A stretch of 62,545 bases of DNA, filler included. It is 5 parts of 5 records of this genome, joined end to end, with 100 filler letters (N's around TTAATTAATTAA, not from the genome) between each part and the next. Parts side by side here need not be neighbours in the genome. Positions count along the whole stretch, not along the records: positions 13,096 to 35,121 come from SRR31156797_3007; 4 more parts are not named here. One strand, written 5' to 3'. The notes beneath the pieces were generated by a model that saw nothing but the letters and a program-made list of their open reading frames with translations, ran no database searches and had not been told where the DNA came from. The position numbers were made by a program, and so were the translations under genes. How positions within the stretch are numbered: position 1 is the stretch's first letter; every line of letters begins with the position of its first letter. This document shows, piece after piece, positions 15,056-29,965 of this stretch.

Positions 15056-15640
15056 TTATGGATTTTTACTAATAACTTTATCTACAAGCCCATAGTCACT
15101 AGCTTCTTCGGCACTCATAAAATTATCACGTTCTGTATCTTTTTCAATTTTTTTGAGGGTTTGACCTGTTTGTTTTGATAAAAGTTTATTTAATACCTCT
15201 TTCATTCGTAAAATCTCTTTTGCTTGAATAGCAATATCAGTAGCTTGCCCTTGAGCTCCACCTAAAGGTTGATGGATCATAATTCTAGCATGAGGGAGAG
15301 AATATCTTTTTCCTGGAGTTCCTGAACTTAAAAGAAAAGCTCCCATAGACGCTGCTTGTCCTATACAAATAGTACAAATATCAGGTTTAATATAATTCAT
15401 CGTATCATAGATAGACATACCACTTGTGATAACTCCACCTGGAGAGTTGATATAAAGATAGATATCTTTATCAGGATCTTCTGCTTCTAAAAATAAAAGT
15501 TGCGCTACAATTGTTGAAGCTACTTGGTCATTTACTTCACCACTTAACATGATGATTCTATCTTTTAGAAGTCTTGAATAGATATCATAACTTCTCTCAC
15601 CTCTTCCTGTTTGTTCTACTACAAATGGTATATAACTCAT
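15056..15640 (-). CDS. clpP: ATP-dependent Clp protease proteolytic subunit
   Basis: [35 protein letters not shown]. Confidence 0.97.
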
Positions 15641-15666: not shown

Positions 15667-16008
15667 TTAACTAGTACATTGTCCACCAAAGCATGTGATT
15701 TGATCTTTACAATCCTCACATGCAGGTGCTACTTCCCCAATACTATCATAAATGAATTTTTTCCAAAGTTTTATAGCAGGTTTCATCTCTGCTAATTTTG
15801 GAAAGTGCTCATTCATATATTTTCCCATTTGAACTCTATTATTAAATCCAAGATCTTGGTATAAATGGTTTGGTTCAAGTGAGATTTTTGCTACATGAGG
15901 AGCTATTTCATTTTTTGAGTATTCATCTTTTGCATATGACTGTAAAAGAGTTGTGACTTTACTTTCTAAAGTATCAAGGTCAGTTGTTTGTACTATTTTA
16001 GTTTCCAT
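15667..16008 (-). CDS. nifQ: Nitrogen fixation protein NifQ
   Basis: NHLYQDLG, HFPKLA, WKKFIY and C-terminal APACEDCKDQITCF. Confidence 0.85.
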   Translation of the reverse strand: METKIVQTTDLDTLESKVTTLLQSYAKDEYSKNEIAPHVAKISLEPNHLYQDLGFNNRVQMGKYMNEHFPKLAEMKPAIKLWKKFIYDSIGEVAPACEDCKDQITCFGGQCTS

Positions 16009-16018
16009 ATTCACTTCT

Positions 16019-16116: not shown

Positions 16117-17343
16117 CTAAAGAGTCATCTCTATCATTTTTCCATTGACAACTTCACCAAACTCATAACCAAAATCATAGCAGTTTAACAGCTCGATTTT
16201 TGTAGGAATAAGTTTTACTTTTTGAGGAGCTAAAGGAACTCTAAACTTTAGGTTTTTAAGTCTACTTTGCATCATATCAACAGCTTCCCCACTCCATCCA
16301 TAACTTCCAAAACATCCACCAAACTTTCCTTTTTTCTCTAAAAGCATCATACATGAAAGTAGATCCCAAACAGGCTTTGGAACATCTCCATTAATAGTTG
16401 GAGCACCTATAAGTATCCCTGTACTTTCTTCTAAAATTGTGATCATATTTTGCTCATCAAGAGCTGTTAGATCATAGATATTTGCTATTAAAGATTCATT
16501 AGCTTCTATACCATTAAAAATAGCATCTGCCATATCTTTTGTATTTTTATAACTTGTTACATAAAAAATAGAGACCACTTTTTTCCCATGGAGACGCTCT
16601 TCTTTTGTACTCCATTTCAGATAGGCATCAAGATATTTTTGCGGATTGTTTCTAATAATCGGACCATGGAGATTACAAATCATGTCAATTTCATACTTCT
16701 CATATAATCTTAAAGCATTTAAAACATCAGTTTTAAAAGGTCTCATAATATGATCATAGTAGTATTTAAAAGCGTAATCAAAATCCCCCACAAGATCATC
16801 AAACAATCTATCATCAAAATAGTGACTTCCAAATACATCTCCACTAAAAAGGATTTGATCCTCTACTAGATAACTACTCATAGTTTCTGGCCAGTGTAGA
16901 TTTGGAGTACTTAAAAACTTGAGAGTCTTTCCACCAAATTGAAGCTCTTTATTGGTCCAAACATTTTCTAGGTTTTCAAGCTCTAGATTTCCAGCAATTG
17001 ATTTTAACATAGGTCTTGCTTGTGGAGAGATAAATACTTTTGCATCTTTTGTACGTGCAGTAAGTTCAGCTAAAGCTCCACTATGATCTGGTTCTAGGTG
17101 GTGCATAACGATATATTTAATATCTTCATATTTGCACACTGACTCTACTTTTTCAAAGAACTCTTTTGAAAACTCTTTTTTTACAGTATCAAAGATGATA
17201 ACACCTTCATCAGTTTTTAATAGATAGGCATTATATGTAGTACCATTAGCTGTTTTCATAATAATATCAAAAGTTCTGATATCTGGGTCACTGACACCGA
17301 TGTAATATAAATTGTTTTTTATTTTTATTGCTTCATTCTTCAT
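16117..17343 (-). CDS. fprA: Flavodiiron protein (FprA/Roo family O2/NO reductase)
   Basis: GTTYNAYL, HHLEPDHSG, LHWPE, FSGDVFGSH, C-terminal flavodoxin FGSYGWSGEA. Confidence 0.93.
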   Translation of the reverse strand: MKNEAIKIKNNLYYIGVSDPDIRTFDIIMKTANGTTYNAYLLKTDEGVIIFDTVKKEFSKEFFEKVESVCKYEDIKYIVMHHLEPDHSGALAELTARTKDAKVFISPQARPMLKSIAGNLELENLENVWTNKELQFGGKTLKFLSTPNLHWPETMSSYLVEDQILFSGDVFGSHYFDDRLFDDLVGDFDYAFKYYYDHIMRPFKTDVLNALRLYEKYEIDMICNLHGPIIRNNPQKYLDAYLKWSTKEERLHGKKVVSIFYVTSYKNTKDMADAIFNGIEANESLIANIYDLTALDEQNMITILEESTGILIGAPTINGDVPKPVWDLLSCMMLLEKKGKFGGCFGSYGWSGEAVDMMQSRLKNLKFRVPLAPQKVKLIPTKIELLNCYDFGYEFGEVVNGKMIEMTL

Positions 17344-17353
17344 ACTTTAGTAG

Positions 17354-17370
17354 ATGCATAAATTATTCCT
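17354..17370 (-). promoter_or_regulatory. Sigma54 promoter of fprA
   Basis: AGG-AATAATTTAT-GCAT. Confidence 0.75.
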
Positions 17371-17379
17371 AAATGAAGA

Positions 17380-18279
17380 TTATTTAAGTTGTAGTGCTGT
17401 TTGTACACATCCATCAAGTGATGTATTGTCTGAAATGATAGGTTGAATATATTCTGGGAAATACGAAGCAGTTGTTTTTCCTATACTAATAGCTTTAAAA
17501 CTATCATCCCAATGAGCATTTTGTAAAAAGCATTCTATCGTAGAAGGAGACGAAAAAATGATAATAGAGTTTTTTGGAAGCTGTATTTTTTTTGGATATT
17601 TTTTACAAAGAGTTTCATAGATCGCTTTTTGATCACACTCCACTCCATTATCGTTTAAGATCTGAACCAAATTGGAAACAATCTTTTTTCCACCTAGATA
17701 TAATACTTTTTTCCCCTTCAATAAAGGGATTAGTTCATGTGCAAACTCATCTCCATGTTTATGTTTCCCAACATATTCTAAAGTTCCACCCAACCATTTA
17801 AGATTTTTTGCAGTTTGTGGTGCAATAACATATGAGGGGATCTTCTCCCATTGATTACTGATAGAATCTAAAGTTTTGATAGCGTTTTTTGAAGTGAATA
17901 TCAAAGCATCATATCCACTAAGATCTATCTCTTTTTCTATTGGCTGCGTAGTAATTACAGGAAAATTTTGTGCGTATTTAACTTTTTTATCACTAAGGAT
18001 AAAAATATTTTTTTGGCTATTTTTGATCCCAAAAACTATATTTTTAAGCTTTTGAGCTATTTTTGAAAAAAATCCATCATCTTCTACGATCGTGATATCT
18101 TTATTTTCATCAACTAAAAACTTAATATCATTATTAGTAAGTGTATATGTGATCTTAATAAACTCTTGATATACCTCATCTTGAGTACATATCTTATCGA
18201 CAATAAGCTTTTGAGTGCTTTTGTCATATTCGTAATATAATAGATCTAGATTGTTCAAAATTGTAACCATTTTTTCCAT
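17380..18279 (-). CDS. hemD: Uroporphyrinogen-III synthase with ~90-aa N-terminal extension
   Basis: YDALIFTSKNA, IYET, IIFSSPSTIECF, ISIGKTTA. Confidence 0.85.
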   Translation of the reverse strand: MEKMVTILNNLDLLYYEYDKSTQKLIVDKICTQDEVYQEFIKITYTLTNNDIKFLVDENKDITIVEDDGFFSKIAQKLKNIVFGIKNSQKNIFILSDKKVKYAQNFPVITTQPIEKEIDLSGYDALIFTSKNAIKTLDSISNQWEKIPSYVIAPQTAKNLKWLGGTLEYVGKHKHGDEFAHELIPLLKGKKVLYLGGKKIVSNLVQILNDNGVECDQKAIYETLCKKYPKKIQLPKNSIIIFSSPSTIECFLQNAHWDDSFKAISIGKTTASYFPEYIQPIISDNTSLDGCVQTALQLK

Positions 18280-18344
18280 AAAGGATATGGTACAATAAGC
18301 GCTCTAAATTTGAACTAAATAGAACTATAAAACATATATTTAAG

Positions 18345-18707
18345 TTATTTTAATAATATTCTTTTAAGCCATAATGGAGCGTTTCCATTAATCATCTTTT
18401 GTAAAGAGTTTAATATATTTTCTATAGTCTCCTCCTCAGATGAGCTTCTCATAGGATATATCCCCACACTTTGTACCATATTAGCAGCTTTTGGCCCAAT
18501 TTGAGTTACACAGATAATATCACAATCTTCAATACACTCTATTTTATAAGTAAGCTTTTCAATCTCATCATCATGCTTTAAAGATGAGTCCACCTCTTCA
18601 AGAAGTTTAAACCCCTCACCATCTACTTCATATTTATAAAACTTTTCACACCATCCAAAATGCTGATTTACGTGTATCCCATCAAGTGAAGCGAATGCTA
18701 TTTTCAT
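18345..18707 (-). CDS. NifX/NifB-family FeMo-cofactor carrier protein
   Basis: MKIAFASLDGIHVNQHFG, IGPKAA; start moved to ATG 18707. Confidence 0.85.
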   Translation of the reverse strand: MKIAFASLDGIHVNQHFGWCEKFYKYEVDGEGFKLLEEVDSSLKHDDEIEKLTYKIECIEDCDIICVTQIGPKAANMVQSVGIYPMRSSSEEETIENILNSLQKMINGNAPLWLKRILLK

Positions 18708-18737
18708 TTGAACCCTTTTTCTTTTTGTTATTATAGT

Positions 18738-18754
18738 ATGCAATAGTTATTCCT
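18738..18754 (-). promoter_or_regulatory. Sigma54 promoter
   Basis: AGG-AATAACTATT-GCAT. Confidence 0.75.
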
Positions 18755-18872
18755 AATTTAAAATACAACTCTCTTTCAAAATTTAAAAAATAAATCAACT
18801 TAAAAGAATAACTTTTACTTAAGGGAATATCTTATAGAGTTATGGATAATATTTTTCCTTTAAGGAGTCAAA

Positions 18873-19829
18873 ATGAAAGAGATATATGATATAGCAGTTA
18901 TTGGAGCTGGACCAGCAGGGATTGCAGCCTCTTGTGAAGCGATGATTTTAGGGATGGAAAAAATCATTGTATTTGAAAAAAGCTCTAATCATTCAGATAC
19001 TATTAGAAAATATTTTAAAGATAACAAACCAGTAGATAAAAACTGGAAAGGGATCGATGTAGAGGTGATCGGAAATATCAGATTTGATGGAGGAACAAAA
19101 GAGAGTACTCTTGATCTTTTTGATGATGCCTTAGAAAAACACCTAATAGAAGCACGATTTCATACTGAAGTAGCTGGAGTCAAAAAAGAGGATAGTTTCT
19201 TTATCATTGAAACCAATACCAATGAAACCTATAAAGCTAAAAATATAGTCGTAGCTATTGGAAAAATGGGGAAACCAAATAAACCTGAGTATGATCTTCC
19301 AAAGACACTAAAAAATGTGATCAACTTTAACATCAGTGATTGTAAAGAGGATGAGGATATACTCGTTGTAGGTGGCGGTGATAGTGCTGTAGAATTTGCT
19401 TATTTTATTCATGAAGAGAATCGTGTAACACTTAACTATAGAAAAGAAAAGTTTACAAGAGCTAATCAAAAAAATGTAGATAATATAATGGGTAAAGCTC
19501 GTGAAGAAAAGATTAAACTTAAACTTGGAGTCGATATAGAATCTATTGAAGATGAAAATGGAAAAATAAAAGTAACCTATAAAGATAACTCAACGGCCAC
19601 TTACGATAGAGTGATATATGCACTTGGAGGCTCTACTCCACAAGAGTTTTTACTTAACTGTGATATAAAACTTGATGAAAAAAACAAACCTCTAGTAAAT
19701 GATCATAATCTAAACTCAAAAGGCATTTATATAGCAGGTGATATAGCTGGACATCTTGGAGGCTCGATTGCAAGCGCATTGAACCATGGATATGTGATAG
19801 TCAATGATATAAAAGCTAGTGCTGCATAA
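18873..19829 (+). CDS. fqrB: TrxB-like flavoprotein lacking CxxC; FqrB-type flavodoxin/ferredoxin:NADPH reductase
   Basis: GAGPAG, VDKNWKG..FDGGTKESTL, VGGGDSA, YIAGD; recalled similarity to Campylobacter/Helicobacter FqrB. Confidence 0.65.
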   Translation: MKEIYDIAVIGAGPAGIAASCEAMILGMEKIIVFEKSSNHSDTIRKYFKDNKPVDKNWKGIDVEVIGNIRFDGGTKESTLDLFDDALEKHLIEARFHTEVAGVKKEDSFFIIETNTNETYKAKNIVVAIGKMGKPNKPEYDLPKTLKNVINFNISDCKEDEDILVVGGGDSAVEFAYFIHEENRVTLNYRKEKFTRANQKNVDNIMGKAREEKIKLKLGVDIESIEDENGKIKVTYKDNSTATYDRVIYALGGSTPQEFLLNCDIKLDEKNKPLVNDHNLNSKGIYIAGDIAGHLGGSIASALNHGYVIVNDIKASAA

Positions 19830-19852
19830 GCTCTAGCTTTTACACTCAATTC

Positions 19853-20806
19853 TTAGATAATGAAAATACTAATATTTTCATCAATAACTTGAGATAAAGT
19901 CCCTTTAATAAGATCATATGTGTTTGTTGCACCAAGTGAACATCCAGCACAGTTTCCTAAGTATGCAAGTCTGATCTCAATATCTGGATCATTTACATAA
20001 TCTAAGATCATAATATCTCCACCATCTTTAACTAAGATAGGTCTGATATATCTATCAATAGCATCTTGAATTACTTCAAATTGATCATCTTTTGATTTCG
20101 CTCTAAATACTTTATTTGGCTCGCAGGCTCTATTTGGCTCTTTATCAACACCACCCATTTGAGCTAGTGCCATAGGATGCCCACTTTTTGCGGCACTTAA
20201 CATACACTCAAAACCTTCAGCTACAAGATCAGTATTTGTTCTATCTTTTAAAAGTAAAAGTCCAAGTCTGAAACTTGCCCCTTGGTGATCTTTTTTTACA
20301 GCCCTTCTAAAGTAATCAATCGCTTTTTCTTGATCTTCAGGGATCCCAATAGCTCCTTGATACATAAGTGCTAAATTATAGTTTGCTGAATCATTTTCAT
20401 AAACACTTGCTTGCTCGAACCACTCTTTTGCTTGAAGGAAATCTTTCTCTACCCCTTCACCTTTTAAGTACATCAATCCAAGATTTGCCATCGCTTGATC
20501 ATTTTTAAGCTTTGCTTCCTCACTCCAAATATTTAATGCTTTTTCAAAATCTTTTGCTCTATATGCACTTAGTGCCTCTCTGTGACTCATAAATCTTCTC
20601 CCCTCACCTGGTTTTGGAAGTTCTCTTCCATGTTCTAATTCGTTTTTAATATGTTTATGCAGATATTCATAAGCAAGCTCTACTGCTTCATCATAATCTT
20701 CACTTGAAGCTTTTACATCAAAATCTAAAAACTCTGCAAGGTAAGCATCACCTATCTCATGCTCACCACCATACACCTCTAATGGATAATCATATACATT
20801 GATCAT
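19853..20806 (-). CDS. HicB-like + Sel1 repeats + NifU C-terminal (NfuA-like) fusion
   Basis: YPLEV..YLAEFLDF..ELPKP; Sel1 repeats (NLGLMYLKGEGVEKD); IRPILVKDGGD..GNCAGC; ATG 20806 one base after the upstream stop. Confidence 0.8.
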   Translation of the reverse strand: MINVYDYPLEVYGGEHEIGDAYLAEFLDFDVKASSEDYDEAVELAYEYLHKHIKNELEHGRELPKPGEGRRFMSHREALSAYRAKDFEKALNIWSEEAKLKNDQAMANLGLMYLKGEGVEKDFLQAKEWFEQASVYENDSANYNLALMYQGAIGIPEDQEKAIDYFRRAVKKDHQGASFRLGLLLLKDRTNTDLVAEGFECMLSAAKSGHPMALAQMGGVDKEPNRACEPNKVFRAKSKDDQFEVIQDAIDRYIRPILVKDGGDIMILDYVNDPDIEIRLAYLGNCAGCSLGATNTYDLIKGTLSQVIDENISIFII

Positions 20807-20807
20807 T

Positions 20808-21194
20808 TTAGTCGTTACACCCACATTTACAAGTTTCACCCTCACCTGGGTCAAGTAGTTTATCGCAGTTTGTATTATCTACTTTTGTAAGATTGTCACT
20901 TAATGCATTGTTGAATATCTCTTCAATGCTAAAGGCATTATAATCTGCACAAAATACATCCATATTGTTTTTCTCAAATGATTTATAAACACCCTCACCC
21001 ATATGATAATAGATCGTAGATGTAGCCCCTTGGCTTTTTAGAAAGTCAGCACTTTTTGGACCTTGCCCTTTTACCTCATTTTCTACTACTTTAAATCCAC
21101 CTGTTTGTGTATCTAAAAGTGCAAAAAATGGAGCTTTTCCATAAAGTTTTGAAAGTGTTGTAGCTTGTTCGTTGTCTAGTGGTATAGCTATCAT
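20808..21194 (-). CDS. NifB/NifX-family (COG1433) protein
   Basis: MIAIPLD..LYGKAPFF, HMGEG, C-terminal CKCGC. Confidence 0.75.
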   Translation of the reverse strand: MIAIPLDNEQATTLSKLYGKAPFFALLDTQTGGFKVVENEVKGQGPKSADFLKSQGATSTIYYHMGEGVYKSFEKNNMDVFCADYNAFSIEEIFNNALSDNLTKVDNTNCDKLLDPGEGETCKCGCND

Positions 21195-21237
21195 AAAAAT
21201 CCCCTTACGTATATACTAAATATTATGTAAGGAGATA

Positions 21238-21254
21238 ATGCATAAAATGTTCCG
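21238..21254 (-). promoter_or_regulatory. Sigma54 promoter
   Basis: CGG-AACATTTTAT-GCAT. Confidence 0.72.
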
Positions 21255-21255
21255 T

Positions 21256-22146
21256 TTATTTTTTTCTGTTTTGGAACCCTTTATCCATAAGTTCAAGTTC
21301 TCTCTCAGCAGAGATAACAATATCTTTATCCACAGTAAAATCTAGATCAGGATTTCTCCCCTCATAATCTACCTTATTTAAAATAGTTTTAATAGCATTT
21401 ACACGAGCTAAAAATTTACTATCACTCCTTATAATAGTCCAAGGAGACTTTTCTGTATTAGTGCGTTTAAGCATATTGAATTTCTTCTCAGTAAACTCAT
21501 CCCATCGCTCTTGCATCTGTACATCGATCTCACTTAGTTTCCATTGTTTTAAAGGATTTACTTCTCTCTCATCAAATCTTCTAGCTTGTTCATCTTTTGT
21601 AACAGAAAAATACATCTTTAAAAAGTGAAACCCATGAGCGATAAGATCTTCTTCAAATTTTGGAACTGATTGCATAAACACTTCATGCTGTTCAGGTGTA
21701 CAAAATCCAAATACAGGCTCTACCATAGCTCTATTGTACCAACTTCTATCAAAAATGACTATCTCTCCACCATGAGGAAACTGCTCCACATATCTTTGAA
21801 AATACCATTGTGTCGTTTGTACACTTGATGGTTTTCCTAAAGCTACTACACGGTAATGTTTTTCATTCATATATCGTGTGATTCTTCGAATCGCTCCACC
21901 TTTTCCTGAAGCATCACGCCCTTCTACTAATACGATCATCTTTTCATCATATTTTTCTAAATGATCTTGTAACTTGATAAGCTCAGCCTGCAGTGGTGCT
22001 AGAACTCTCTCTTGAGTTCTATACAAATATTTATTATAAAGATCATTTGTAAACTCCTCATTAGGATCCTTTAATTTTTCTAAAAACTCTTCATAAGTTA
22101 TTGTAGGATCATGTTTTTCATAAAACTGTTCAAATTTATTTGACAT
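21256..22146 (-). CDS. ppk2: Polyphosphate kinase 2
   Basis: EGRDASGKGG, FDRSWYNRAMVE, PLKQWKLS. Confidence 0.95.
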   Translation of the reverse strand: MSNKFEQFYEKHDPTITYEEFLEKLKDPNEEFTNDLYNKYLYRTQERVLAPLQAELIKLQDHLEKYDEKMIVLVEGRDASGKGGAIRRITRYMNEKHYRVVALGKPSSVQTTQWYFQRYVEQFPHGGEIVIFDRSWYNRAMVEPVFGFCTPEQHEVFMQSVPKFEEDLIAHGFHFLKMYFSVTKDEQARRFDEREVNPLKQWKLSEIDVQMQERWDEFTEKKFNMLKRTNTEKSPWTIIRSDSKFLARVNAIKTILNKVDYEGRNPDLDFTVDKDIVISAERELELMDKGFQNRKK

Positions 22147-22218
22147 TATTAAACTCCAAAATTAAGATATATGTTTGCAATGTTACTATAATATGTTTAC
22201 AAATGGGTAACAGACCTT

Positions 22219-22236
22219 TTGGAATAGGTCTTGCAT
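22219..22236 (+). promoter_or_regulatory. Sigma54 promoter of nifE
   Basis: TTGG-AATAGGTCTT-GCAT. Confidence 0.8.
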
Positions 22237-22270
22237 AAAGTATAATTATATAAAAAATGGGAGAAATACC

Positions 22271-23629
22271 ATGGTAAATAAAAAACAAATCAGAGAACTA
22301 CTCAACGAATCTGCATGTTCTCACAATGAAAAGAAAAAATCAAGCTGTGATAAACCAAAACCAGGAGCTACGAGTGGTGGATGTGCCTTTGAAGGAGCAC
22401 AAATCGCCCTCTTTCCATATGCTGATGCAGTACACTTAGTACACGCTCCTGCTACTTGCCAAGGAGCCTCATGGGAAACAAGAGCCACACCAACTAGCTG
22501 GGAAGGTGAAAACAACACCCCTCTTGGATACTACACAGATGTCACGACTAATGACGTGATCTTTGGTGGAGATCAAAAGCTAGAAGACTCTATCACGTAT
22601 ATAGTAGAACATAAAAACCCAAAAGCGATCTTTATCTATGAAACATGTGTAACTGCAATGATTGGGGATAATATCGATAATGTAGCAAAAAGAATGCAAG
22701 AAAAGTTTAATATCCCAATGGTTGTAGTTCATGCCCCAGGATTTGTAGGAAGTAAAAACCTTGGAAGTAGACTAGCAGGGGAAGCAGTCCTCAACCAACT
22801 TATAGGAACAAGAGAACCTGAAGAGATCCACCCATATGGAATCAACCTCATCGGTGAATATAACGTAACAGGTGATATGTGGCAATACACTCCAATCCTA
22901 GAAAAGATCGGAATAAAAGTAGTCTCAACTCTAGCTGGTGATGGAAGAATAGAGAATATCCAAACAGCCCATAGAGCAAAACTAAACGTAATCGTATGTG
23001 CAAAATCACTTGTAACGTTAGTGCGAAAGATGGAAGAGAGATACCAAATCCCACATATCTCTATTTCATTTTACGGAAAAAGAGATACAACCAATGCCAT
23101 CATGTCTATCGTCAATGCCTTTGGAGATGAAAAACTTATCAAAAAAGCAAAAGAAGTAATCGCAGAAGAGGAAGCAGCACTAGAAAAAAGACTAGAACCA
23201 TATAGAAAAATCCTAGCAGGGAAAAAAGCGATCCTCAACACAGGTGGAAATAAATCATGGTCAATCGCTTCAGCTCTCCAAGATATAGGAATAGAAGTAG
23301 TTGCTACAAGTATTAGAAAAGCAACACTTGAAGATATAGAAATCGCAAAACAATACGTAGATATCCTTATGAAAGTTCCAGCTCAAGAGCAAGGAAAACT
23401 TATAGATGAACATAATGTAGATATCTTACTAGCAGGTGGAAGAAGTCTTTACACTGCTATTAAGAAAAAAGTTGCCTTTGTAGATGTAAATCAAGAGAAA
23501 AAAGTAAGCTATGGAGCTTATGGTGGATTAGAAAACTTAGCAAAAGATGTATGTGCAGCAGTTCTTAATCCAGTCTTTAGAACAGTTGGGGAGCCTGCTC
23601 CTTGGGATGAGGAAGAGAAAGCTAGTTAA
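22271..23629 (+). CDS. nifE: Nitrogenase FeMo-cofactor scaffold NifE
   Basis: PGATSGGCAFEGA, HLVHAPATC, TCVTAMIGD, PGFVGSKNLG, TGGNKSWS. Confidence 0.96.
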   Translation: MVNKKQIRELLNESACSHNEKKKSSCDKPKPGATSGGCAFEGAQIALFPYADAVHLVHAPATCQGASWETRATPTSWEGENNTPLGYYTDVTTNDVIFGGDQKLEDSITYIVEHKNPKAIFIYETCVTAMIGDNIDNVAKRMQEKFNIPMVVVHAPGFVGSKNLGSRLAGEAVLNQLIGTREPEEIHPYGINLIGEYNVTGDMWQYTPILEKIGIKVVSTLAGDGRIENIQTAHRAKLNVIVCAKSLVTLVRKMEERYQIPHISISFYGKRDTTNAIMSIVNAFGDEKLIKKAKEVIAEEEAALEKRLEPYRKILAGKKAILNTGGNKSWSIASALQDIGIEVVATSIRKATLEDIEIAKQYVDILMKVPAQEQGKLIDEHNVDILLAGGRSLYTAIKKKVAFVDVNQEKKVSYGAYGGLENLAKDVCAAVLNPVFRTVGEPAPWDEEEKAS

Positions 23630-23642
23630 GATCAGAAAATAA

Positions 23643-23671
23643 AAAAAGGTGAGCTAAAACCCCACCTTTTT
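23643..23671 (+). terminator. Bidirectional terminator after nifE
   Basis: AAAAAGGTG ... CACCTTTTT. Confidence 0.75.
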
Positions 23672-23793
23672 ATCTGTGTATATCTAGCAAGTAGTCACTC
23701 TTACAAAATAAACAATCCATTTCCTAAATTGGTATCATTTCATATAAGTTTTGTATAAAAGTCAATAACAAATACTTTGGAAGTTTATTTAAT

Positions 23794-23898
23794 ATATAAC
23801 GGTTGAATACATTGCATTTCTTTCACCTGCCATGAAAGAGTGAACTACTTTCGTTCTTCTATAGATTTATCTATTCCGTGCTAGGGTTTGCTATAGGT
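23794..23898 (-). mobile_element. Degenerate or hybrid integron attC site downstream of brnA
   Basis: Minus strand ACCTATAGC (R'', one mismatch to the complement of cassette start GTTATAGGT) ... GTTATAT (R'). Confidence 0.55.
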
Positions 23899-24139
23899 TT
23901 GTATTCCCATGACTATGATTTGCTGCATACATATCCAATAGATTTCTTATCATTTTTTGATATTGAGTATGATGTTTTTTTGCTTCACTCTTAAAAAATT
24001 CTATACTCTCTTTTGTCAATGAAATTGTAACTTTTACATTCTCGTCTTTTAAAACTAAATCTTTTGGAGATGGCAAAAAATCTTCAATAATTTTAATATC
24101 TCCAATTGGTTCATCTGTGTATTTAATTGTTTTCTTCAT
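23891..24139 (-). CDS. brnA: BrnA/CopG-type antitoxin
   Basis: DFLPSPKDLV..VKVTISL..IEFFK..YQKMIRNLLD; start ATG 24139 overlapping the brnT end. Confidence 0.85.
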   Translation of the reverse strand: MKKTIKYTDEPIGDIKIIEDFLPSPKDLVLKDENVKVTISLTKESIEFFKSEAKKHHTQYQKMIRNLLDMYAANHSHGNTNL

Positions 24140-24401
24140 AAATCTTTTTCCCCTTTCTCCAGTATCCTGCACCGTAAATTCTGATTTTGTTGTTACGATA
24201 AACAAATCTTACAGTTAAAATTGCTTCATCAACTTTACCAAAACAAAAATATCTTTTTTCATTTTGGCTATGTTCTAAATCTTCGGCAATAATTCTATTT
24301 TCATCTAAAAAAGCATGTTGCGCTTTTTCAAAAGAAACATTATGTTTTTTTTGATTGGATTTATTTTTGTTCGCATCCCATTCAAAGTTTACTTTATTCA
24401 T
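24123..24401 (-). CDS. brnT: BrnT toxin
   Basis: FEWDANKNKSNQKKHNVSFEKA..HSQNEKRY..KIRIYGA. Confidence 0.92.
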   Translation of the reverse strand: MNKVNFEWDANKNKSNQKKHNVSFEKAQHAFLDENRIIAEDLEHSQNEKRYFCFGKVDEAILTVRFVYRNNKIRIYGAGYWRKGKKIYEENN

Positions 24402-24472
24402 AAGATGATTATAGCTAAATATTTATAAAATAGCAATACTTTTTTATGTATATTATTTGTGAGAAGTTGTAC

Positions 24473-24542
24473 CTATAACGTTTGACTTGAGAAGTAAGTT
24501 GCCCGATAGGGTCACTTATTTCTCTCCGAGGTTTTGTTAGCA
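24473..24542 (-). mobile_element. Integron attC site (70 bp)
   Basis: Minus strand TGCTAAC-AAAAC..GAGAAATAAGTGACCC-TATC-GGGCAACTTACTTCTC..AAAC-GTTATAG: AAC/GTT cores around an imperfect palindrome. Confidence 0.8.
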
Positions 24543-24543
24543 T

Positions 24544-24626
24544 TTATGACTCTTTGCTTACTAATTTTAATTCATCTTTATATTGCTTATTTTGTAAAAA
24601 CCCTCATTTTGATCTTGTGTTTCCAT
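24544..24626 (-). pseudogene. Remnant of a preceding cassette gene
   Basis: TGtTATAAT-6 nt-ATG start of a 19-codon ORF, overlapping out of frame a tail (..KDELKLVSKES*) that stops just before the attC R'' box. Confidence 0.4.
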
Positions 24627-24681
24627 GGTTGTATTATAACATAAAATATAATGTAACTCTTAATCTTAAAAAGTAGTTTAT

Positions 24682-24714
24682 AAGATTGCGGTCACAAATT
24701 GTGACCGCAATCTT
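24682..24714. repeat. Perfect 16-bp inverted repeat with 1-nt spacer
   Basis: AAGATTGCGGTCACAA-A-TTGTGACCGCAATCTT. Confidence 0.9.
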
Positions 24715-24717
24715 TAT

Positions 24718-24734
24718 AGGAACATTTATTGCAT
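24718..24734 (+). promoter_or_regulatory. Sigma54 promoter of nifN
   Basis: AGG-AACATTTATT-GCAT. Confidence 0.8.
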
Positions 24735-24787
24735 TTTTACTACAATAAACCAAAATATAAAAGTAACTATAAAAACGGATAAACACT

Positions 24788-26083
24788 ATGAAACAATCTC
24801 AAAAACCAAATAAACCACTTCAAATAAACCCTATTAAACTCTCTCAACCAATGGGAGCATTACTTTGTTTTTTAGGGATAAAAAACTGTATGCCCCTTAT
24901 GCATGGAGCACAAGGGTGTGCTTCATTTTCTAAGGTGTTTTTTACTAGACACTTTAGTGATCCAATTGCTATCCAAACTACAGCAGTAAATGATATCACT
25001 GCAGTTATTGATGGAGGAGATTATTCCATCTCTGAGGCTGTAAAAAATATCACTAAAAAAGTAAAGCCTGATCTTGTGGGTCTTTTTACTACGGGTATGA
25101 CAGAGACAAAAGGGGATGATATCAAGGGAGCTACTTATCTTTTAAGAGATAAGCAAAAGATGGTATATGTTCATACTCCTGATTTTGAGGGTGGATTGGA
25201 AAGTGGTTATGCTCATTCTATTGAAGCTATTATTGAGCAATTAGTTGAAGAAAAAACTGAGATCGATACAAAAAAAGCTCTTCTTATTCCTCATGTGAGT
25301 TTAACTCCTATTGAAGTTGAGAAGATCAAAGAGCAGATCGATCTTTTTGGCTTTGAGACTTTAGCACTTCCTGATATCTCACTCTCTTTAGATGGACACT
25401 TGGGATTAAAGCAAGGAGCACTTAGTTCTGGTGGGATTAGCATGGATGAGATCCAAGGTCTAGGAGATAGTAATATTGTAGTGACTATTGGAAATAGTGT
25501 TGAAAAGTCTGGAACTCTTTTAAAAGGGAAAAATGAGAAGATCACACACCTTCACTTTGATACAGTAAGTGGACTACTTAAAGCTGATAAGTTTTATAAA
25601 GCTTTAATGGAAGTAAAAAAGATCACAAAGCCTAGCCCAAGTGTTGTAAGATGGAGAAAGCGTCTCCAAGATGCTCTTCTTGATACACATTTTGCACTTG
25701 GAGGTACGGAAGTGATTATAGCAGCTGAACCTGATCAGTTACTCTCACTTGCTACTACTATTAATGAAGTAGGAGCACATATCAAAATGGTAGTAAGTCC
25801 TACCAAAAGTGTAAGTTTGGATACAATACCTTGCGAAAATGTAGTAATTGGTGACTTTGATGATGTGGAGAAAGCTTTACCTGAGGCTGATCTTCTTATC
25901 TCAAACTTTCATGGAGAAAGATTAACAAATCAATATAAAAAAGCACTTCTTTTAAGAGGATTTCCAAATTATGAAATAGTTGGAAACAATCTTATTAATG
26001 ACACCTTATATGAGGGAAGTTGTTATCTTCTTTTTGAGACAGCAAATATTATGAATCACCATAATCATGGAGCACACCACTAA
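24788..26083 (+). CDS. nifN: Nitrogenase FeMo-cofactor scaffold NifN
   Basis: NPIKLSQPMGA, MHGAQGCASF, RHFSDPIAIQTTA, ETKGDD, TPDFEGGLESG. Confidence 0.96.
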   Translation: MKQSQKPNKPLQINPIKLSQPMGALLCFLGIKNCMPLMHGAQGCASFSKVFFTRHFSDPIAIQTTAVNDITAVIDGGDYSISEAVKNITKKVKPDLVGLFTTGMTETKGDDIKGATYLLRDKQKMVYVHTPDFEGGLESGYAHSIEAIIEQLVEEKTEIDTKKALLIPHVSLTPIEVEKIKEQIDLFGFETLALPDISLSLDGHLGLKQGALSSGGISMDEIQGLGDSNIVVTIGNSVEKSGTLLKGKNEKITHLHFDTVSGLLKADKFYKALMEVKKITKPSPSVVRWRKRLQDALLDTHFALGGTEVIIAAEPDQLLSLATTINEVGAHIKMVVSPTKSVSLDTIPCENVVIGDFDDVEKALPEADLLISNFHGERLTNQYKKALLLRGFPNYEIVGNNLINDTLYEGSCYLLFETANIMNHHNHGAHH

Positions 26084-26469
26084 TGGAGTTTCAAAACGAA
26101 AAACATCTTTTAAACTATGATGGGATAGATAAGTATCATGTAGAATTTGTAGAGATCTACAATAGTGTTGATACTCATTCTAACGAATCTTACATAAATG
26201 TAATGAAAAAACTATTTGAGCAAACAAAAGTACATTTTAGTAGTGAAGAAGATCTAATGTTACAATATAACTATACTCGAAAAAAAGAGCATATGGATGA
26301 ACATGCAAAAGTTTTAGCAGAGATGGAGTACTTTTTAAATAAGGCAAATACAAAAATGGGAATTATAATGCTAAAGTCCTACTTTAAAGAGAAACTCCCT
26401 TCGTGGTTTGATCTTCATCTTATCAGTATGGATAGTGACTTAGCTCACCATATTAAAAACAATTCTTAG
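26083..26469 (+). CDS. Hemerythrin, translationally coupled to nifN
   Basis: DKYH, HFSSEE, EHMDEH, HLISMD; TAATG overlap. Confidence 0.9.
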   Translation: MEFQNEKHLLNYDGIDKYHVEFVEIYNSVDTHSNESYINVMKKLFEQTKVHFSSEEDLMLQYNYTRKKEHMDEHAKVLAEMEYFLNKANTKMGIIMLKSYFKEKLPSWFDLHLISMDSDLAHHIKNNS

Positions 26470-26500
26470 TATTCTTTCTTTAGATTCTTTTTAGAAATTA

Positions 26501-26517
26501 TGGAACAGTTTATGCAA
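26501..26517 (+). promoter_or_regulatory. Sigma54 promoter of nifX operon
   Basis: TGG-AACAGTTTAT-GCAA. Confidence 0.8.
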
Positions 26518-26553
26518 TTATTTATAATATAATTTCTAAAAAGGAGATCACCC

Positions 26554-26952
26554 ATGGGATCAACAATCAAAGTTACTTCTAATGATAGCGGAACAGGAAG
26601 TATAAGAGTTGCTTTTGCAACAAATGATAATGAGAATATCGATGCACACTTTGGTAGTGCAAAACAGTTCAATATATATGATATCTCTCCAGATGGTCAT
26701 GAAATTTCTACGATCATTAAGATTGAAGAGAAAGATGTAGATAAAACTGTAGAGCTTTTAAAAGATGTGGATATCGTATATTTTGTAAATATTGGAGCAA
26801 CAGCTGCTGCAAAGATCATCAATAGTGGGATCTTCCCAATCAAATACAAAGAGGTTGTAGGTATTGATGAAGAGATCAAAAAGCTTACTGAAATGTTAAA
26901 TGGACAACCAGCTCCATTTATTAAAAAAATATTAGAAAAAAAGGCTGCTTAA
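26554..26952 (+). CDS. nifX: Nitrogen fixation protein NifX
   Basis: RVAFATNDNENIDAHFGSAKQF, IGATAAAK; position after nifEN. Confidence 0.88.
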   Translation: MGSTIKVTSNDSGTGSIRVAFATNDNENIDAHFGSAKQFNIYDISPDGHEISTIIKIEEKDVDKTVELLKDVDIVYFVNIGATAAAKIINSGIFPIKYKEVVGIDEEIKKLTEMLNGQPAPFIKKILEKKAA

Positions 26953-26954
26953 TT

Positions 26955-27377
26955 ATGGAAAACTTATTTATTGAAACACTTATCGGACAAGTAAGAGCAC
27001 TTGATCAATTTGGAACATGGGCAAACAAAGAGGATAAAGATATCTTAGTTGAAAAATATGTAAAAACAAAAGAACAATTAAAAGATATCCCTGTGATTGC
27101 AGATATTGATGAGATGCAAGTTCAAGATATTAGACTGATCTTTCAAGCAATTGCTTTAGCATTTGAGAAAAAAACTGGTGTAATGTGTTCTGTTGTAATG
27201 GAGATGAGTCACGAAGGTTTTGGACGAGCTGTAGTGATCGCTGATAAAATTGTAATCGTAAATAAGTTTTTTAAAGATGCACATAGATACTCTTTTAGAA
27301 CCTATGAAGATCTAATCAAAGAGGGTGATAAGATGCTTGATAATGCAATCAAAATTTATGAAGAGTATACAAAATAA
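26955..27377 (+). CDS. NifX-associated protein (DUF269)
   Basis: RALDQFGTW, MSHEGFGRAVV, KDAHRYSF. Confidence 0.88.
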   Translation: MENLFIETLIGQVRALDQFGTWANKEDKDILVEKYVKTKEQLKDIPVIADIDEMQVQDIRLIFQAIALAFEKKTGVMCSVVMEMSHEGFGRAVVIADKIVIVNKFFKDAHRYSFRTYEDLIKEGDKMLDNAIKIYEEYTK

Positions 27378-27429
27378 TAAAATAATCTAAATCAATCAAA
27401 CATATTAAATAAAAGGAGAATAAAAAAAT

Positions 27430-27948
27430 ATGGCAAAAATGGGAATTTTCGTAGGAACTGCTGGTGGAACTTCAATGAAGATAGCAGATGCAATAGCCGA
27501 AGAGTTTGGAATCGAAGAAGATGATATAATCAATATGGAAGAGGATTTTGATGATATTGAAGATCAAATGATGGAATATGATGTTCTTTTTATCGGAAGT
27601 TCAACTTGGGGACAAGGGGATGTTCACTTTTCATGGGTTGATCCACAATTAGAAATTGAAGATGAAGATTTTGATTTTAGTGGAAAAACTGTTGCATTTT
27701 TTGGAGCAGGAGATTGTAAAAAACATGGTGAACATTTTTGTAGTGCCTTAGGAAAACTACATAAAACTTTTACTGAAGCTGGTGCTAAAGCAATTGGTGC
27801 TATTCCTAAAGAAGGATACACTTACGAGTTCTCTTTAGCGGAAATGGGTGATAAACTATGTGGTTGTGCGATTGATGAGCACAATGAATCAGAAAAATCA
27901 GATGAGAGAATCGCTCTTTGGATTGAGACTTTAAAATCTGAGTTATAA
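27430..27948 (+). CDS. Long-chain acidic flavodoxin (NifF-like)
   Basis: GTAGGTS, GSSTWGQG, VAFFGAGD, RIALWIETL. Confidence 0.9.
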   Translation: MAKMGIFVGTAGGTSMKIADAIAEEFGIEEDDIINMEEDFDDIEDQMMEYDVLFIGSSTWGQGDVHFSWVDPQLEIEDEDFDFSGKTVAFFGAGDCKKHGEHFCSALGKLHKTFTEAGAKAIGAIPKEGYTYEFSLAEMGDKLCGCAIDEHNESEKSDERIALWIETLKSEL

Positions 27949-27977
27949 AATAAATTAAGCTTTAAAAGGAGTGTAAG

Positions 27978-28379
27978 ATGTATATGGTAATTGCGGTTTT
28001 TAATCATTACGATCTTCAAAATGTTTTAAGTGATCTTTTTTCAAATAATATTGAAGGAGTCACAGTATCTCAAGTAATAGGAAAAGGTTCATTTGGCCTT
28101 AAAGAGGGTGACAATAACCCAGTGGATCTTTTTGAAAAAGTAAAAGTAGAGATTGTTGTATCGAATGAGAAAAATAGAGAGACAGCTATGGAGTGTATCA
28201 GAGCCAACTGCCAAGATCTTGGTCGAGGAGCTGGTAAGATGTGGTGGGTAACTGTTGGAGGCGTTGAGCGAATCCGAACAGGTGAAAAAGACATTGATGC
28301 TTTAACCACTCAAGTTGATAAAAAAGTACCAAATGTACCTGTAGCATACACAACTGCTATAGATACTCCATGTAGCTAG
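27978..28379 (+). CDS. Atypical P-II family protein
   Basis: GVTVSQVIGKG, KVKVEIVV, GAGKMW, RIRTGE. Confidence 0.85.
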   Translation: MYMVIAVFNHYDLQNVLSDLFSNNIEGVTVSQVIGKGSFGLKEGDNNPVDLFEKVKVEIVVSNEKNRETAMECIRANCQDLGRGAGKMWWVTVGGVERIRTGEKDIDALTTQVDKKVPNVPVAYTTAIDTPCS

Positions 28380-28392
28380 AAAGGAATAGAAA

Positions 28393-28734
28393 ATGCAAAT
28401 AGAGACAAAGTCATTAGATGAGTTTTATGAACTGACTGATGCGGAAGATTATTTTGATTTTTTTGATCTAGAGTATGATCAAAGTTTAGTAAATGTGAAG
28501 AGATTTCATATGTTAAAAGAGTATGGAACCTTGATCGAAACTGGTTTTGAGAACCTAAAAGATGATGAGGAAAAACTCCTTGACTTTTTGAAGTTTTCAC
28601 TTTTAAAAGTATATGGTGACTATAAAAACGGTCATGCGCCAAGTGCAGCTGAAGTTTGGAGCATGTTCGAGAATGGAAAACTTAGCGGTTGTACAAGCTG
28701 TACTCCAACACCAGGAAATAGTTGTGGCTGCTAA
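28393..28734 (+). CDS. nifW: Nitrogenase-stabilizing protein NifW
   Basis: LTDAEDYFDFFDLEYDQSLVNVKRFHMLK. Confidence 0.88.
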   Translation: MQIETKSLDEFYELTDAEDYFDFFDLEYDQSLVNVKRFHMLKEYGTLIETGFENLKDDEEKLLDFLKFSLLKVYGDYKNGHAPSAAEVWSMFENGKLSGCTSCTPTPGNSCGC

Positions 28735-29119
28735 TAAAGAGTTTTCAGTTGATCCTAATGTTGTATTACACGATAGTGTAACTGCAACTAGATCAGGACG
28801 TGATGAAGAGGAACCTTTATTTAAAGAGGGTCAAAAAGTTGAGCTTCTTGAAGATGTTGTAAATGATGGAACATATCCACACTCAAAGATAGGTGAATTA
28901 ATGATGCCAAAAGGCGCTATTGGATACATTAAATCTATGGGTGAGTTTTTACAGGTCATCCGAGTTTACGAGGTTCATTTTATAGATACAGGTATGGAGC
29001 TAGAGATCATTGGTTGTAGAGAGCATGAGCTTAAAGCAGTTGATGATGGTTGTGATAAAGACACAACTGAATCACCATTATTTAGAGCTATGATTGAAAA
29101 GAGAAAAAATAAGCAATAA
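28724..29119 (+). CDS. nifZ: Nitrogen fixation protein NifZ
   Basis: NDGTYP, GYIKSMGEFLQ, YEVHF, GCREHEL; GTG start at 28724 with AGGA RBS. Confidence 0.9.
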   Translation: MAANKEFSVDPNVVLHDSVTATRSGRDEEEPLFKEGQKVELLEDVVNDGTYPHSKIGELMMPKGAIGYIKSMGEFLQVIRVYEVHFIDTGMELEIIGCREHELKAVDDGCDKDTTESPLFRAMIEKRKNKQ

Positions 29120-29211
29120 ACAAATTGTTCATATTTCCATGCTTGTAGTATAGTGATATATTGCAGGCGTGAATTTATGTTTTATATCTTAAACAAAGGA
29201 GAGAGGACGTT

Positions 29212-29556
29212 ATGGCAAAAGTTATTTTTATGCACTTCAATGAAGAGAAAGATGGTGTTTATGAGGGGAAAATTGGTGAGCCTTTAGTTACATTAGCAAA
29301 AGCTAATGGTGTTACATTACCAATTGATTGTCAAGATGGTCAATGTGGAAGTTGTTTAGTAAATGTTGAAAACTTAGCAAGTGAAGAACCTACAAGTTAT
29401 ATGGAAGATATGGAACTTGAAAAGTTAGTTGAGCTTGGAGCTATTACTCAAAAAGAGGCTAATACATGCCAACAATTTACTGTAGCTCCAAAAGTAAGAC
29501 TAGCATGTCAAACACTTATCAAGGGTGACATTTTAGTTAAACCTTATAAGGGTTAA
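29212..29556 (+). CDS. [2Fe-2S] ferredoxin, FeSII/Shethna protein II-like
   Basis: NGVTLPIDCQDGQCGSCLV ... long insert ... PKVRLACQT. Confidence 0.75.
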   Translation: MAKVIFMHFNEEKDGVYEGKIGEPLVTLAKANGVTLPIDCQDGQCGSCLVNVENLASEEPTSYMEDMELEKLVELGAITQKEANTCQQFTVAPKVRLACQTLIKGDILVKPYKG

Positions 29557-29594: not shown

Positions 29595-29891
29595 ATGACA
29601 ACTAGAGTAGAAATTATCAATGATTTTTTAGCAATCAATGTTAAAGAAGGTAGCACAATCCAAGATATCGTAGAAGCGAGTGGATCAGCACTTCCATTTG
29701 GATGTAGAGATGGAGAATGTGGTACATGTGTTGTTGAAGTTGAAGCTGGTATGGAATTTTTATCTGATAAAACAGATAAAGAAGTAAAAGTTTTAAAAGA
29801 GATCTGTTCAGGAACATGTACTCCAAAATCTAGACTTTCTTGTCAAATGAAAATTGCTAGACCAAATGGTGTAGTAAGACTTAAATACTAA
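29595..29891 (+). CDS. [2Fe-2S] ferredoxin
   Basis: LPFGCRDGECGTCVV, SRLSCQ. Confidence 0.92.
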   Translation: MTTRVEIINDFLAINVKEGSTIQDIVEASGSALPFGCRDGECGTCVVEVEAGMEFLSDKTDKEVKVLKEICSGTCTPKSRLSCQMKIARPNGVVRLKY

Positions 29892-29949: not shown

Positions 29950-29965
29950 TGGTACAATTCTTGCA
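29950..29965 (+). promoter_or_regulatory. Overlapping sigma54 site and sigma70 extended -10 at the rpoN start
   Basis: TGG-TACAATTCTT-GC-ATG; the same bases read TGgTACAAT. Confidence 0.7.

Follow-up and report, generated by a model that had tools for sequence, protein, structure and literature searches.

How nitrogenase survives near oxygen in non-cyanobacterial, microaerophilic diazotrophs is poorly known. In Anabaena heterocysts the flavodiiron protein (FDP) Flv3B is co-expressed with nitrogenase and credited with reducing the local O2 level; FDPs of cyanobacteria have an additional flavin-reductase domain and take their electrons straight from NAD(P)H. The closest known counterpart of the system described here is the NifA/RpoN regulon of Rhodobacter capsulatus, which includes a NifA-dependent fprA-fdxCN-...-prxS operon, fdxD (encoding a "Shethna ferredoxin") and nifW. 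In that organism FdC has been suggested as the electron donor of FprA and is needed for N2 fixation by an unknown route, and FdxD (FdD) is credited with O2 protection of the Mo-nitrogenase and reported not to donate electrons to nitrogenase. In Azotobacter vinelandii, the FeSII residues R24, K53, K63, R92 and D93 have been named as contacts with NifH and NifDK (PMC11754109). Hemerythrins of Campylobacter jejuni protect the O2-labile Fe-S enzymes Por and Oor (PMC4257069), and a hemerythrin lying between the nif clusters of Candidatus Thalassolituus haligoni has been proposed as an O2 defence (PMC11290528). Here we analyze a window of 62.5 kb (the whole stretch of DNA that was studied), one contig of which carries a nif cluster with genes for an FDP, a hemerythrin, NifW, a ferredoxin resembling FeSII (Shethna protein II) and a fusion of Sel1 repeats to an Nfu domain (Sel1-Nfu).

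The window consists of five contigs joined by four linkers and comprises several molecules; the nif contig occupies positions 13096-35121 and has a GC content of about 0.31. We assign the host to the Arcobacteraceae, as its NifE is 88-93% identical to that of metagenome-assembled genomes (MAGs) of this family. Among species representatives the nearest is G140; its contig 249 (the L056 record) matches the Sel1-Nfu, NifB/X-like and PPK2 genes at 94-99%. The region from 15.6 to 31.2 kb corresponds to the accessory half of a nif regulon of Arcobacteraceae. Scans of the window proteins against Pfam and NCBIfam, from which the gene map was drawn (see the table), found the five genes where a sequence-only reading of this DNA had placed them. 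That reading's label of a Campylobacterota diazotroph is fair by NifE identity, with the qualification that nifHDK lies outside the window. We put at about 60% the probability that oxygen-defence functions are built into this nif regulon, driven by a nif-borne sigma-54 and, by inference from relatives, by NifA. The probable role of the five genes is to shield nitrogenase from oxygen, similar to the situation in Rhodobacter. Behind this reading stand the genes themselves with their cofactor ligands, their promoter motifs, a conserved gene order and a near-exclusive presence in genomes that carry nifH.

Regulation is a stronger argument here than co-occurrence. Motifs with the −24/−12 promoter pattern GG-N10-GC stand at five places in the cluster, and the TTG at 18743 that was first listed as the start of the NifX-like gene is the −12 TTGCA of one of them, the true start being the ATG at 18707. 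Of the loci of relatives, 20/31 have the strict motif ahead of the NifB/X-like gene and 41/51 ahead of nifE, but only 1/35 ahead of the NifX-like gene and 0/25 ahead of the FDP gene, which indicates that the leftward arm is normally one sigma-54 operon with the FDP gene inside it. The sole relative with a motif before the NifX-like gene (L043) has its arm split by an insertion, as in the window. The rpoN gene was found in 24 of 81 sampled family genomes, comprising all 24 that carry nifH and none of the 57 that lack it, and every copy lies beside nif. Three complete diazotroph genomes (G001, G002 and G090) each encode a single Sigma54_activat protein (enhancer-binding protein), 14-19 kb from nifH; that of G001, the only one of the three scanned, passes the NifA equivalog cut-off (534.3 versus 528.85). 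The A. butzleri genome paper describes RpoN, FliA and NtrC-type partners as missing. Given the restriction of rpoN to nifH-carrying genomes and the single activator, a sigma-54 promoter in Arcobacteraceae probably marks the nif regulon and control by NifA and RpoN. The sigma-54 control proposed from sequence alone is thus supported by the motifs, by rpoN within the cluster and by the promoters of relatives. A by-eye look, without motif discovery, found no clear TGT-N10-ACA NifA site upstream of nifE and nifN. We also note a perfect sigma-54 motif, TGGTACAATTCTTGCA, at 29950-29965, whose last position is the A of the rpoN start codon; this could reflect chance, a mis-called start or autoregulation.

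The distribution of these genes was determined in 184 Arcobacteraceae species genomes, 66 of them scored as nifH-positive (E <= 1e-60; 63 of the 66 exceed the curated nifH cut-off) and 118 as nifH-negative. FDP orthologues (>= 63% identity) occur in 64 genomes, 63 nifH-positive and one nifH-negative (the fragmentary MAG G124), and are lacking in the nifH-positive G075, G129 and G152. The FeSII-like gene is present in 64/66 nifH-positive and 2/118 nifH-negative genomes (G124 and G146), Sel1-Nfu in 64/66 and 2/118 (G124 and G140), and hemerythrin orthologues (>= 47% identity) in 48/66 and 1/118 (G124). Ten more genomes, eight of them nifH-negative, have hemerythrin matches of only 27-33%. PPK2, a control from the same region, was recovered from 183/184 genomes, so the searches do reach nifH-negative genomes. 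The exceptions among the latter all contain other pieces of the nif cluster and are therefore probably incomplete diazotroph bins. An even sample of the phylum (401 genomes) gave a similar picture, with FDP orthologues (>= 56% identity) in 31/51 nifH-positive and 0/350 nifH-negative genomes and, in four genomes, only paralogues of 34-39%. The genes are thus not equally common in non-diazotrophs, and the co-occurrence anticipated by the sequence-only reading is borne out. In genome G152, nifH, rpoN and a shortened Sel1-Nfu lie near one another, and these queries yielded no FDP, FeSII-like or hemerythrin orthologue there; its nif cluster may be a stripped-down one.

Gene order was compared by tblastn of the window proteins against 80 NifE-centred loci, 56 of them from Campylobacterota and many truncated. 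The leftward arm runs NifB/X-like, Sel1-Nfu, NifX-like, FDP, NifQ, divergent from a rightward arm of NifE, NifN, (hemerythrin), NifX, DUF269, flavodoxin, (P-II), NifW, NifZ, FeSII-like, FdC-like and RpoN, where parentheses mark variable members. This two-armed architecture is common to loci of Arcobacteraceae, Sulfurovaceae, Sulfurospirillaceae and Sulfurimonadaceae. The FDP gene is present in 25/56 Campylobacterota loci and absent from the complete-looking Sulfurovum and Sulfurospirillum loci L024, L031, L032, L037 and L038. In G115, which has the closest FDP (92%), the order is NifX-like, HemD-like, FDP, NifQ, two open reading frames (ORFs), nifH, nifD and nifK; in G115 and G001 the FDP gene and nifH share a strand, with the FDP gene 2.4-3.5 kb upstream (3.5 kb in G001). 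The window departs from its relatives in having ClpP after NifQ, an oxidoreductase that splits the leftward arm, and inserted PPK2 and BrnTA genes. G115 also has a 130-aa ORF (L098 7241-7633) between nifH and nifD.

The FDP (408 aa) consists of an ODP domain (residues 37-227, Pfam 6.5e-24) and a Flavodoxin_1 domain (259-376) with no further domains, the composition of class A. Its closest solved relatives are E. coli NorV (3e-71), Moorella FprA (3.9e-58) and D. gigas ROO, and residues 6-395 align with NorV 3-392, the rubredoxin domain of NorV being absent. The diiron ligands H82, E84, D86, H87, H150, D169 and H226 correspond to NorV H79, E81, D83, H84, H147, D166 and H227, and all seven are retained, together with K55 and Y265, in 25/25 full-length FDP orthologues of the loci. 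The latter two residues were placed through the NorV alignment, whose top entry has K at 52 and Y at 262 by our own count. A Lys and a Tyr are found in O2-selective FDPs (K53/Y271 in E. histolytica), and the NO-selective E. coli NorV is given as having D52 and S262 (PMC13133992). K55/Y265 therefore mildly favour reduction of O2 over NO, a preference that sequence leaves unsettled. The best NCBIfam models are those for "anaerobic nitric oxide reductase flavorubredoxin", which the FDP matches at 276 against an equivalog cut-off of 635. By analogy with FdC and FprA of R. capsulatus, its electron donor is probably the FdC-like ferredoxin (Fer2b) or the nif flavodoxin.

The best PDB sequence matches of the FeSII-like protein are Azotobacter FeSII entries (1e-14 to 8e-14, about 30% identity), and the alignment runs through the N-loop insertion that distinguishes FeSII from plain [2Fe-2S] ferredoxins. 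An AlphaFold2 model built with 13 homologues (alignment A1) reached a predicted local distance difference test score (pLDDT) of 85.5. Its helices 66-74 and 80-89 match the FeSII lid helices hN1 (69-78) and hN2 (84-91) (PMC11754109). Foldseek ranks 1-11 are all FeSII, the top one being 9cu1_N, from a MoFeP:FeP:FeSII filament, with TM-scores of 0.83/0.79 and a root-mean-square deviation of 2.2 Å over 113 columns. All four cluster cysteines are present in the window protein: C40, C45 and C48 align with the FeSII ligands C42, C47 and C50 (PMC11754109), and C99 aligns with Cys102 by our own count. A homodimer prediction with two copies scored 0.31 against a mark of 0.42 and carries no weight in either direction.

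The hemerythrin exceeds the cut-off of TIGR02481 (55.5 versus 51.75); its Pfam match by itself is weak (0.0044), and a PDB sequence search reached only E ~0.8, with DcrH. It has all seven diiron ligands, H19, H51, E55, H70, H74, H112 and D117 (motif H...HxxxE...HxxxH...HxxxxD), which are retained in 18/18 orthologues, and we make the assignment because of the NCBIfam match together with these ligands. The TAATG coupling to nifN noted from the sequence is present, the nifN stop overlapping the hemerythrin start. The orthologue is distant from nif in most family genomes, and we retrieved 14 copies that are separated from nifH by 185 kb to 2 Mb. Each of the 14 has upstream the motif [ATG]GG[ATC]A[TCA]-N5-TTGCA (11 directly, 3 before the preceding gene of the same operon), and they account for 14 of the 19 matches to this motif in 89 kb, counting both strands. 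The genes around these copies (ankyrin, GNAT, glutaredoxin-like, SfsA, LuxS) have no relation to nif. A different hemerythrin type of ~157 aa lies between nifE and nifN in other families (L013, L020, L035, L042 and L048), and in L047 the same position is taken by a hemerythrin-PAS-GGDEF-EAL protein. A hidden Markov model of five hemerythrins detected a hemerythrin ORF in 10/56 Campylobacterota loci, in 9 of them inside the nifE-nifX interval; 34 loci have both nifE and nifN. The two hemerythrin types at NifEN, together with unlinked, sigma-54-driven copies restricted to diazotrophs, speak for a real functional tie, which may be to assembly of the iron-molybdenum cofactor (FeMo-co) instead of bulk O2 buffering. 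On another contig, positions 257-658 encode a second, canonical hemerythrin (Pfam 2e-15) adjoining a 1012-aa Cache-GAF-HD-GYP protein at 689-3727.

Of the five labels given by the sequence-only reading, four stand. The fifth, the "NfuA-like fusion", is correct as to its Nfu domain, and its other half proved to be different. The product of 19853-20806 has ~75 aa without a family, then Sel1 repeats and a NifU C-terminal domain (PF01106) with a CxxC motif (CAGC); Pfam found no A-type carrier domain in it, and the NfuA model TIGR03341 gives 20 bits against a cut-off of 269. NifW scores 58.7 against a cut-off of 23 with PF03206 and stays under the NCBIfam equivalog cut-offs (63.8 versus 115). Its gene adjoins nifZ in the nif cluster, a position kept in relatives.

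Table. Features of the nif contig and the linkers of the window, in window coordinates.
Feature	Position	Strand	Evidence or remark
Linkers	12996-13095, 35122-35221, 48334-48433, 56707-56806		N44-TTAATTAATTAA-N44
MCP, truncated by contig end; 96-aa ORF; ClpP	left of NifQ	-	
NifQ, short, C-terminal part of family	15667..16014	-	PF04891 7.5e-19; after FDP in relatives
Class A FDP, 408 aa	16117..17343	-	Pfam, NorV alignment, ligands
HemD-like protein, 100-aa N-terminus without family, inserted in FDP operon	17380..18279	-	PF02602 3.9e-30
NifX-like protein	18345..18707	-	TIGR02663 3e-28, below cut-off; start revised to ATG 18707
Sigma-54 −24/−12 motif before NifX-like/HemD-like/FDP/NifQ	18739..18754	-	AGGAATAACTATTGCA
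FAD/NAD(P)H oxidoreductase, thioredoxin-reductase fold without CxxC, insert splitting arm	18873..19829	+	Pyr_redox_3 2.6e-45
Sel1-repeat + Nfu (NifU C-terminal, CAGC) fusion	19853..20806	-	Pfam/NCBIfam
NifB/X-like Nitro_FeMo-Co domain protein, first gene of leftward arm	20808..21194	-	PF02579 8.7e-10
Sigma-54 motif before NifB/X-like gene	21239..21254	-	CGGAACATTTTATGCA
PPK2	21256-22146	-	Insert
Sigma-54 motif before nifE	22220..22235	+	TGGAATAGGTCTTGCA
NifE	22271..23629	+	TIGR01283 498.6 bits
BrnT/BrnA-like toxin-antitoxin pair	nifE-nifN gap, 23630-24787	-	
Sigma-54-like motif before nifN	24718..24733	+	AGGAACATTTATTGCA; 15/34 relatives
NifN	24788..26083	+	TIGR01285 403.8 bits, above cut-off
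Hemerythrin	26083..26469	+	TIGR02481 and diiron ligands
Sigma-54-like motif before nifX	26501..26516	+	TGGAACAGTTTATGCA
NifX and NifX-associated DUF269 protein	26554..27377	+	TIGR02663 113.3, TIGR02935 144.1, both above cut-off
Long-chain flavodoxin, candidate electron carrier	27430..27948	+	Flavodoxin_1 73.1, above cut-off
P-II-like protein	27978..28379	+	PF00543 1.8e-16
NifW	28393..28734	+	PF03206 58.7 bits
NifZ, true start probably downstream of listed one	28613..29119	+	PF04319 2.7e-24, residues 67-141
FeSII (Shethna protein II)-like [2Fe-2S] ferredoxin	29212..29556	+	Cys40/45/48/99 and N-loop
FdC-like [2Fe-2S] ferredoxin (Fer2b)	29595..29891	+	Best PDB match 9i2a 1.7e-13, R. capsulatus FdC
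RpoN (sigma-54), end of nif cluster	29965..31221	+	NF004602 512.1 bits, above cut-off

Several other features of the contig deserve mention. ClpP lies on the same strand as NifQ, 26 nt beyond it, and no terminator-like hairpin occurs before the one that follows ClpP (15049-15022; region 15022-15640), so that ClpP may be transcribed by read-through from the FDP operon. Among the loci examined, only G115 shares the HemD-like gene between the NifX-like and FDP genes (71%; L098 1591-2511), and the oxidoreductase has a relative only in L008 (50%). Lacking CxxC, the latter could be a ferredoxin/flavodoxin-NAD(P)H reductase supplying the FDP or nitrogenase. The 100-aa N-terminus of the HemD-like protein and the N-terminal 90 aa of Sel1-Nfu match no significant Pfam family, and a HicB-like match for these regions was dismissed (E 0.12). 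The nifE-nifN gap of 1.1 kb has a hairpin directly after nifE (23643-23671) and a perfect 29-nt palindrome (24684-24712) just ahead of the nifN sigma-54 motif; in relatives this gap measures from 0 to >10 kb, with hybrid kinase, RhuM, ORF6N, AI-2E transporter and hemerythrin genes as cargo. The flavodoxin falls under one NCBIfam cut-off (NF006739, 158.8 bits versus 175) and under another (TIGR01752, 146.0 versus 146.75). The P-II-like gene between flavodoxin and NifW is kept in many relatives, and its product is possibly a NifI-like switch-off factor. GC content is ~0.29-0.35 in the contigs up to 35121 and ~0.46-0.59 from 35222 onward, and by this split the bin may combine two organisms.

We hypothesize that the encoded proteins would act in successive layers. 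The class A FDP would reduce incoming O2 to water, the nif flavodoxin or the FdC-like ferredoxin being its probable source of electrons. The FeSII-like ferredoxin, with its four cysteines here, would sense oxidation and hold nitrogenase locked in a complex that is inactive but tolerates O2. The hemerythrin, co-produced with NifN, would bind O2 or otherwise shield the O2-labile NifEN/FeMo-co assembly line, and NifW and the Sel1-Nfu carrier would aid maturation and re-supply of Fe-S clusters.

A number of points weigh against this protective reading. We infer the mechanism, including the "buffer", "lock" and "repair" steps, from sequence, and even in R. capsulatus the role of FprA has been called unknown. 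NifA dependence of the window would follow from the genomes of relatives, among whose activators only that of G001 was scanned against NifA. The nifHDK genes are absent from the window; on the nif contig, ClpP and an MCP gene come after NifQ. Species are not independent, and linkage alone makes the genes of a mobile nif cluster co-occur with nifH, whatever their role. Hemerythrin is missing in 18/66 nifH-positive family genomes and FDP in 20/51 nifH-positive genomes of the phylum sample, so neither is essential. Swaps at the K/Y positions of the E. coli enzyme left selectivity unchanged, making these positions insufficient as predictors (PMC13133992), and a scan of the window and 57 loci with the narrow pattern C..CG-x20-40-CP.C found no rubredoxin. 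In the FeSII-like protein the Azotobacter contacts are replaced (R24 by I21, K53 by N51, K63 by T61/S62, R92/D93 by F89/T90), a loss that is not decisive because the partner nitrogenase differs too. Its cluster cysteines are moreover missing from most homologues (alignment A1), all four being kept in 5/20 Campylobacterota loci and 8/20 sampled family genomes. At least two are lost in 15/20 and 12/20, respectively (loci L013-L053 and L106-L118). This cluster-less majority calls into question a cluster-based switch as the core function of the family. Of the overall interpretation offered by the sequence-only reading, then, the embedding in a regulon and the restriction to diazotrophs stand, and the protective mechanism stays conjectural, with the Azotobacter FeSII contacts not conserved.

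The history of the FeSII-like family bears on the last point. A tree of 48 rows places the 27 that lack the cysteines in a single clade (support 100/98), which is nested within the Campylobacterota rows that have them; across the midpoint root lies a group from Pseudomonadota that also has the cysteines. The clade of FeSII-like proteins without cluster cysteines appears to be new here. The window protein belongs to the cysteine-bearing group (95% to G085), and G115, the nearest genome by FDP, has the cysteine-less form. The N-loop is near-invariant in forms with and without the cysteines, and an extra Cys86 occurs in 18/20 Campylobacterota loci and 0/7 Pseudomonadota homologues. A C48-C86 disulfide switch was dropped as a candidate, since Cys86 falls on helix hN2, away from the lid helix over the cluster.

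Three other explanations compete with dedicated oxygen defence. The genes might be accessory factors of the usual nif kind that supply electrons and assemble the cofactor, with the FeSII-like and FdC-like ferredoxins as electron carriers, Sel1-Nfu and NifW in maturation, the hemerythrin as an iron or redox sensor or an iron donor to NifEN, and the FDP as a redox-balancing flavoprotein. All of them do lie among the FeMo-co assembly genes for NifEN, NifX, NifQ and NifZ; hemerythrin is tied to nifE/nifN in 9/34 loci; hemerythrin-PAS-GGDEF-EAL is a sensor architecture; the FeSII-like protein lacks its cluster in most relatives; and FdC is needed for N2 fixation in R. capsulatus. We nevertheless consider this account unlikely, as the FDP has an intact catalytic site and belongs to an O2/NO-reducing family, FdD of R. 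capsulatus is reported to protect nitrogenase from O2 and to donate no electrons to it, and the FeSII-like model best matches FeSII bound in its complex. Less probable again is that the FDP chiefly removes NO arising from nitrate or nitrite reduction by the cell or its neighbours, and protects nitrogenase in that way while the other genes act as proposed above. Its nearest solved relatives are the NO reductases NorV and Moorella FprA, its best NCBIfam models are of the NO reductase flavorubredoxin, and sequence is no guide to selectivity, given that the reverse exchanges made in the E. coli enzyme had no effect (PMC13133992). Against such a role, K55/Y265 are as in the O2-selective enzymes throughout the 25 orthologues, the NCBIfam score is far from its cut-off, and the NorV rubredoxin domain is absent.

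It is also conceivable that these genes are passengers hitch-hiking on a horizontally mobile nif island with no functional tie to nitrogen fixation. Unrelated genes have indeed inserted into the region (BrnT/BrnA, PPK2 and the oxidoreductase for the window; kinases, transporters and RhuM in other loci), and the FeSII-like gene tree departs from family boundaries. True inserts, however, are lineage-specific or universal, as PPK2 is, whereas FDP, Sel1-Nfu and the FeSII-like gene hold fixed positions within sigma-54 operons in four families. Even the hemerythrins far from nif are confined to nifH-positive genomes and keep sigma-54 promoters. Hitch-hiking is thus already disfavoured, and we regard it as highly improbable.

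Within the oxygen-defence reading, a broader proposal can be advanced tentatively, although we think it rather doubtful: that Campylobacterota diazotrophs possess a dedicated NifA/sigma-54 anti-oxygen module with two features that are not known from other systems, namely a hemerythrin recruited at least twice to NifEN, where it would guard FeMo-co assembly and not the completed enzyme, and an FeSII lineage mostly without the [2Fe-2S] sensor and with a near-invariant N-loop bearing a new cysteine. If true, this would imply cluster-independent (thiol-based or constitutive) locking or chaperoning of nitrogenase. Sister proteins with and without the Fe-S sensor share one nif slot, a natural experiment on the Shethna mechanism. 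The locus also contributes comparative evidence to the question of what nif-regulated FprA-type FDPs do. Oxic-sulfidic interfaces commonly harbour Arcobacteraceae and their relatives, and 66/184 species genomes of the family carry nifH. The system offers a testable parts list tied to a very simple circuit, with one sigma-54 and one activator in the genomes checked, and compact protective modules of this kind are relevant to transferring nitrogen fixation into aerobic hosts.

The literature searched, with most subscription journals outside its scope, contained no description of such a cluster for Campylobacterota, and in this respect the novelty suggested by the sequence-only reading holds; the idea itself is known in kind from the R. 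capsulatus NifA regulon. Given that precedent, layered O2 defence is an established notion, of which the window provides a counterpart in another phylum. Unlike Flv3B, the FDP of the window is a class A enzyme of two domains and depends on an external donor. With A. vinelandii FeSII, the agent of conformational protection, the FeSII-like protein shares a fold with two N-loop helices and the four cluster cysteines, and it differs in its unconserved contacts, the extra Cys86 in its N-loop, a gene inside the nif cluster and the existence of cluster-less orthologues; its dimerization and nitrogenase binding are putative. The hemerythrin is single-domain and from the same phylum as those of C. jejuni but belongs to another orthogroup (non-diazotroph family members reach 27-33%), has a sigma-54 promoter and is tied to nifN or the nif regulon. 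For Cand. Thalassolituus haligoni, a marine heterotrophic diazotroph of the gammaproteobacteria, the available part of the source reports no translational coupling to nifN or regulon evidence, and the hemerythrin layer appears to be new here. Sel1-Nfu shares with NfuA the C-terminal Nfu domain with CxxC, and carries Sel1 repeats instead of the A-type carrier domain. The likeness to R. capsulatus extends to Fer2b, whose best match is FdC (PDB 9i2a), whereas the FDP gene of the window sits in a nifB/X-like-nfu-nifX-like-FDP-nifQ operon apart from fdxC/fdxN. Beyond the R. capsulatus regulon, the putative system of the window adds a hemerythrin, Sel1-Nfu and a sigma factor that travels with nif.

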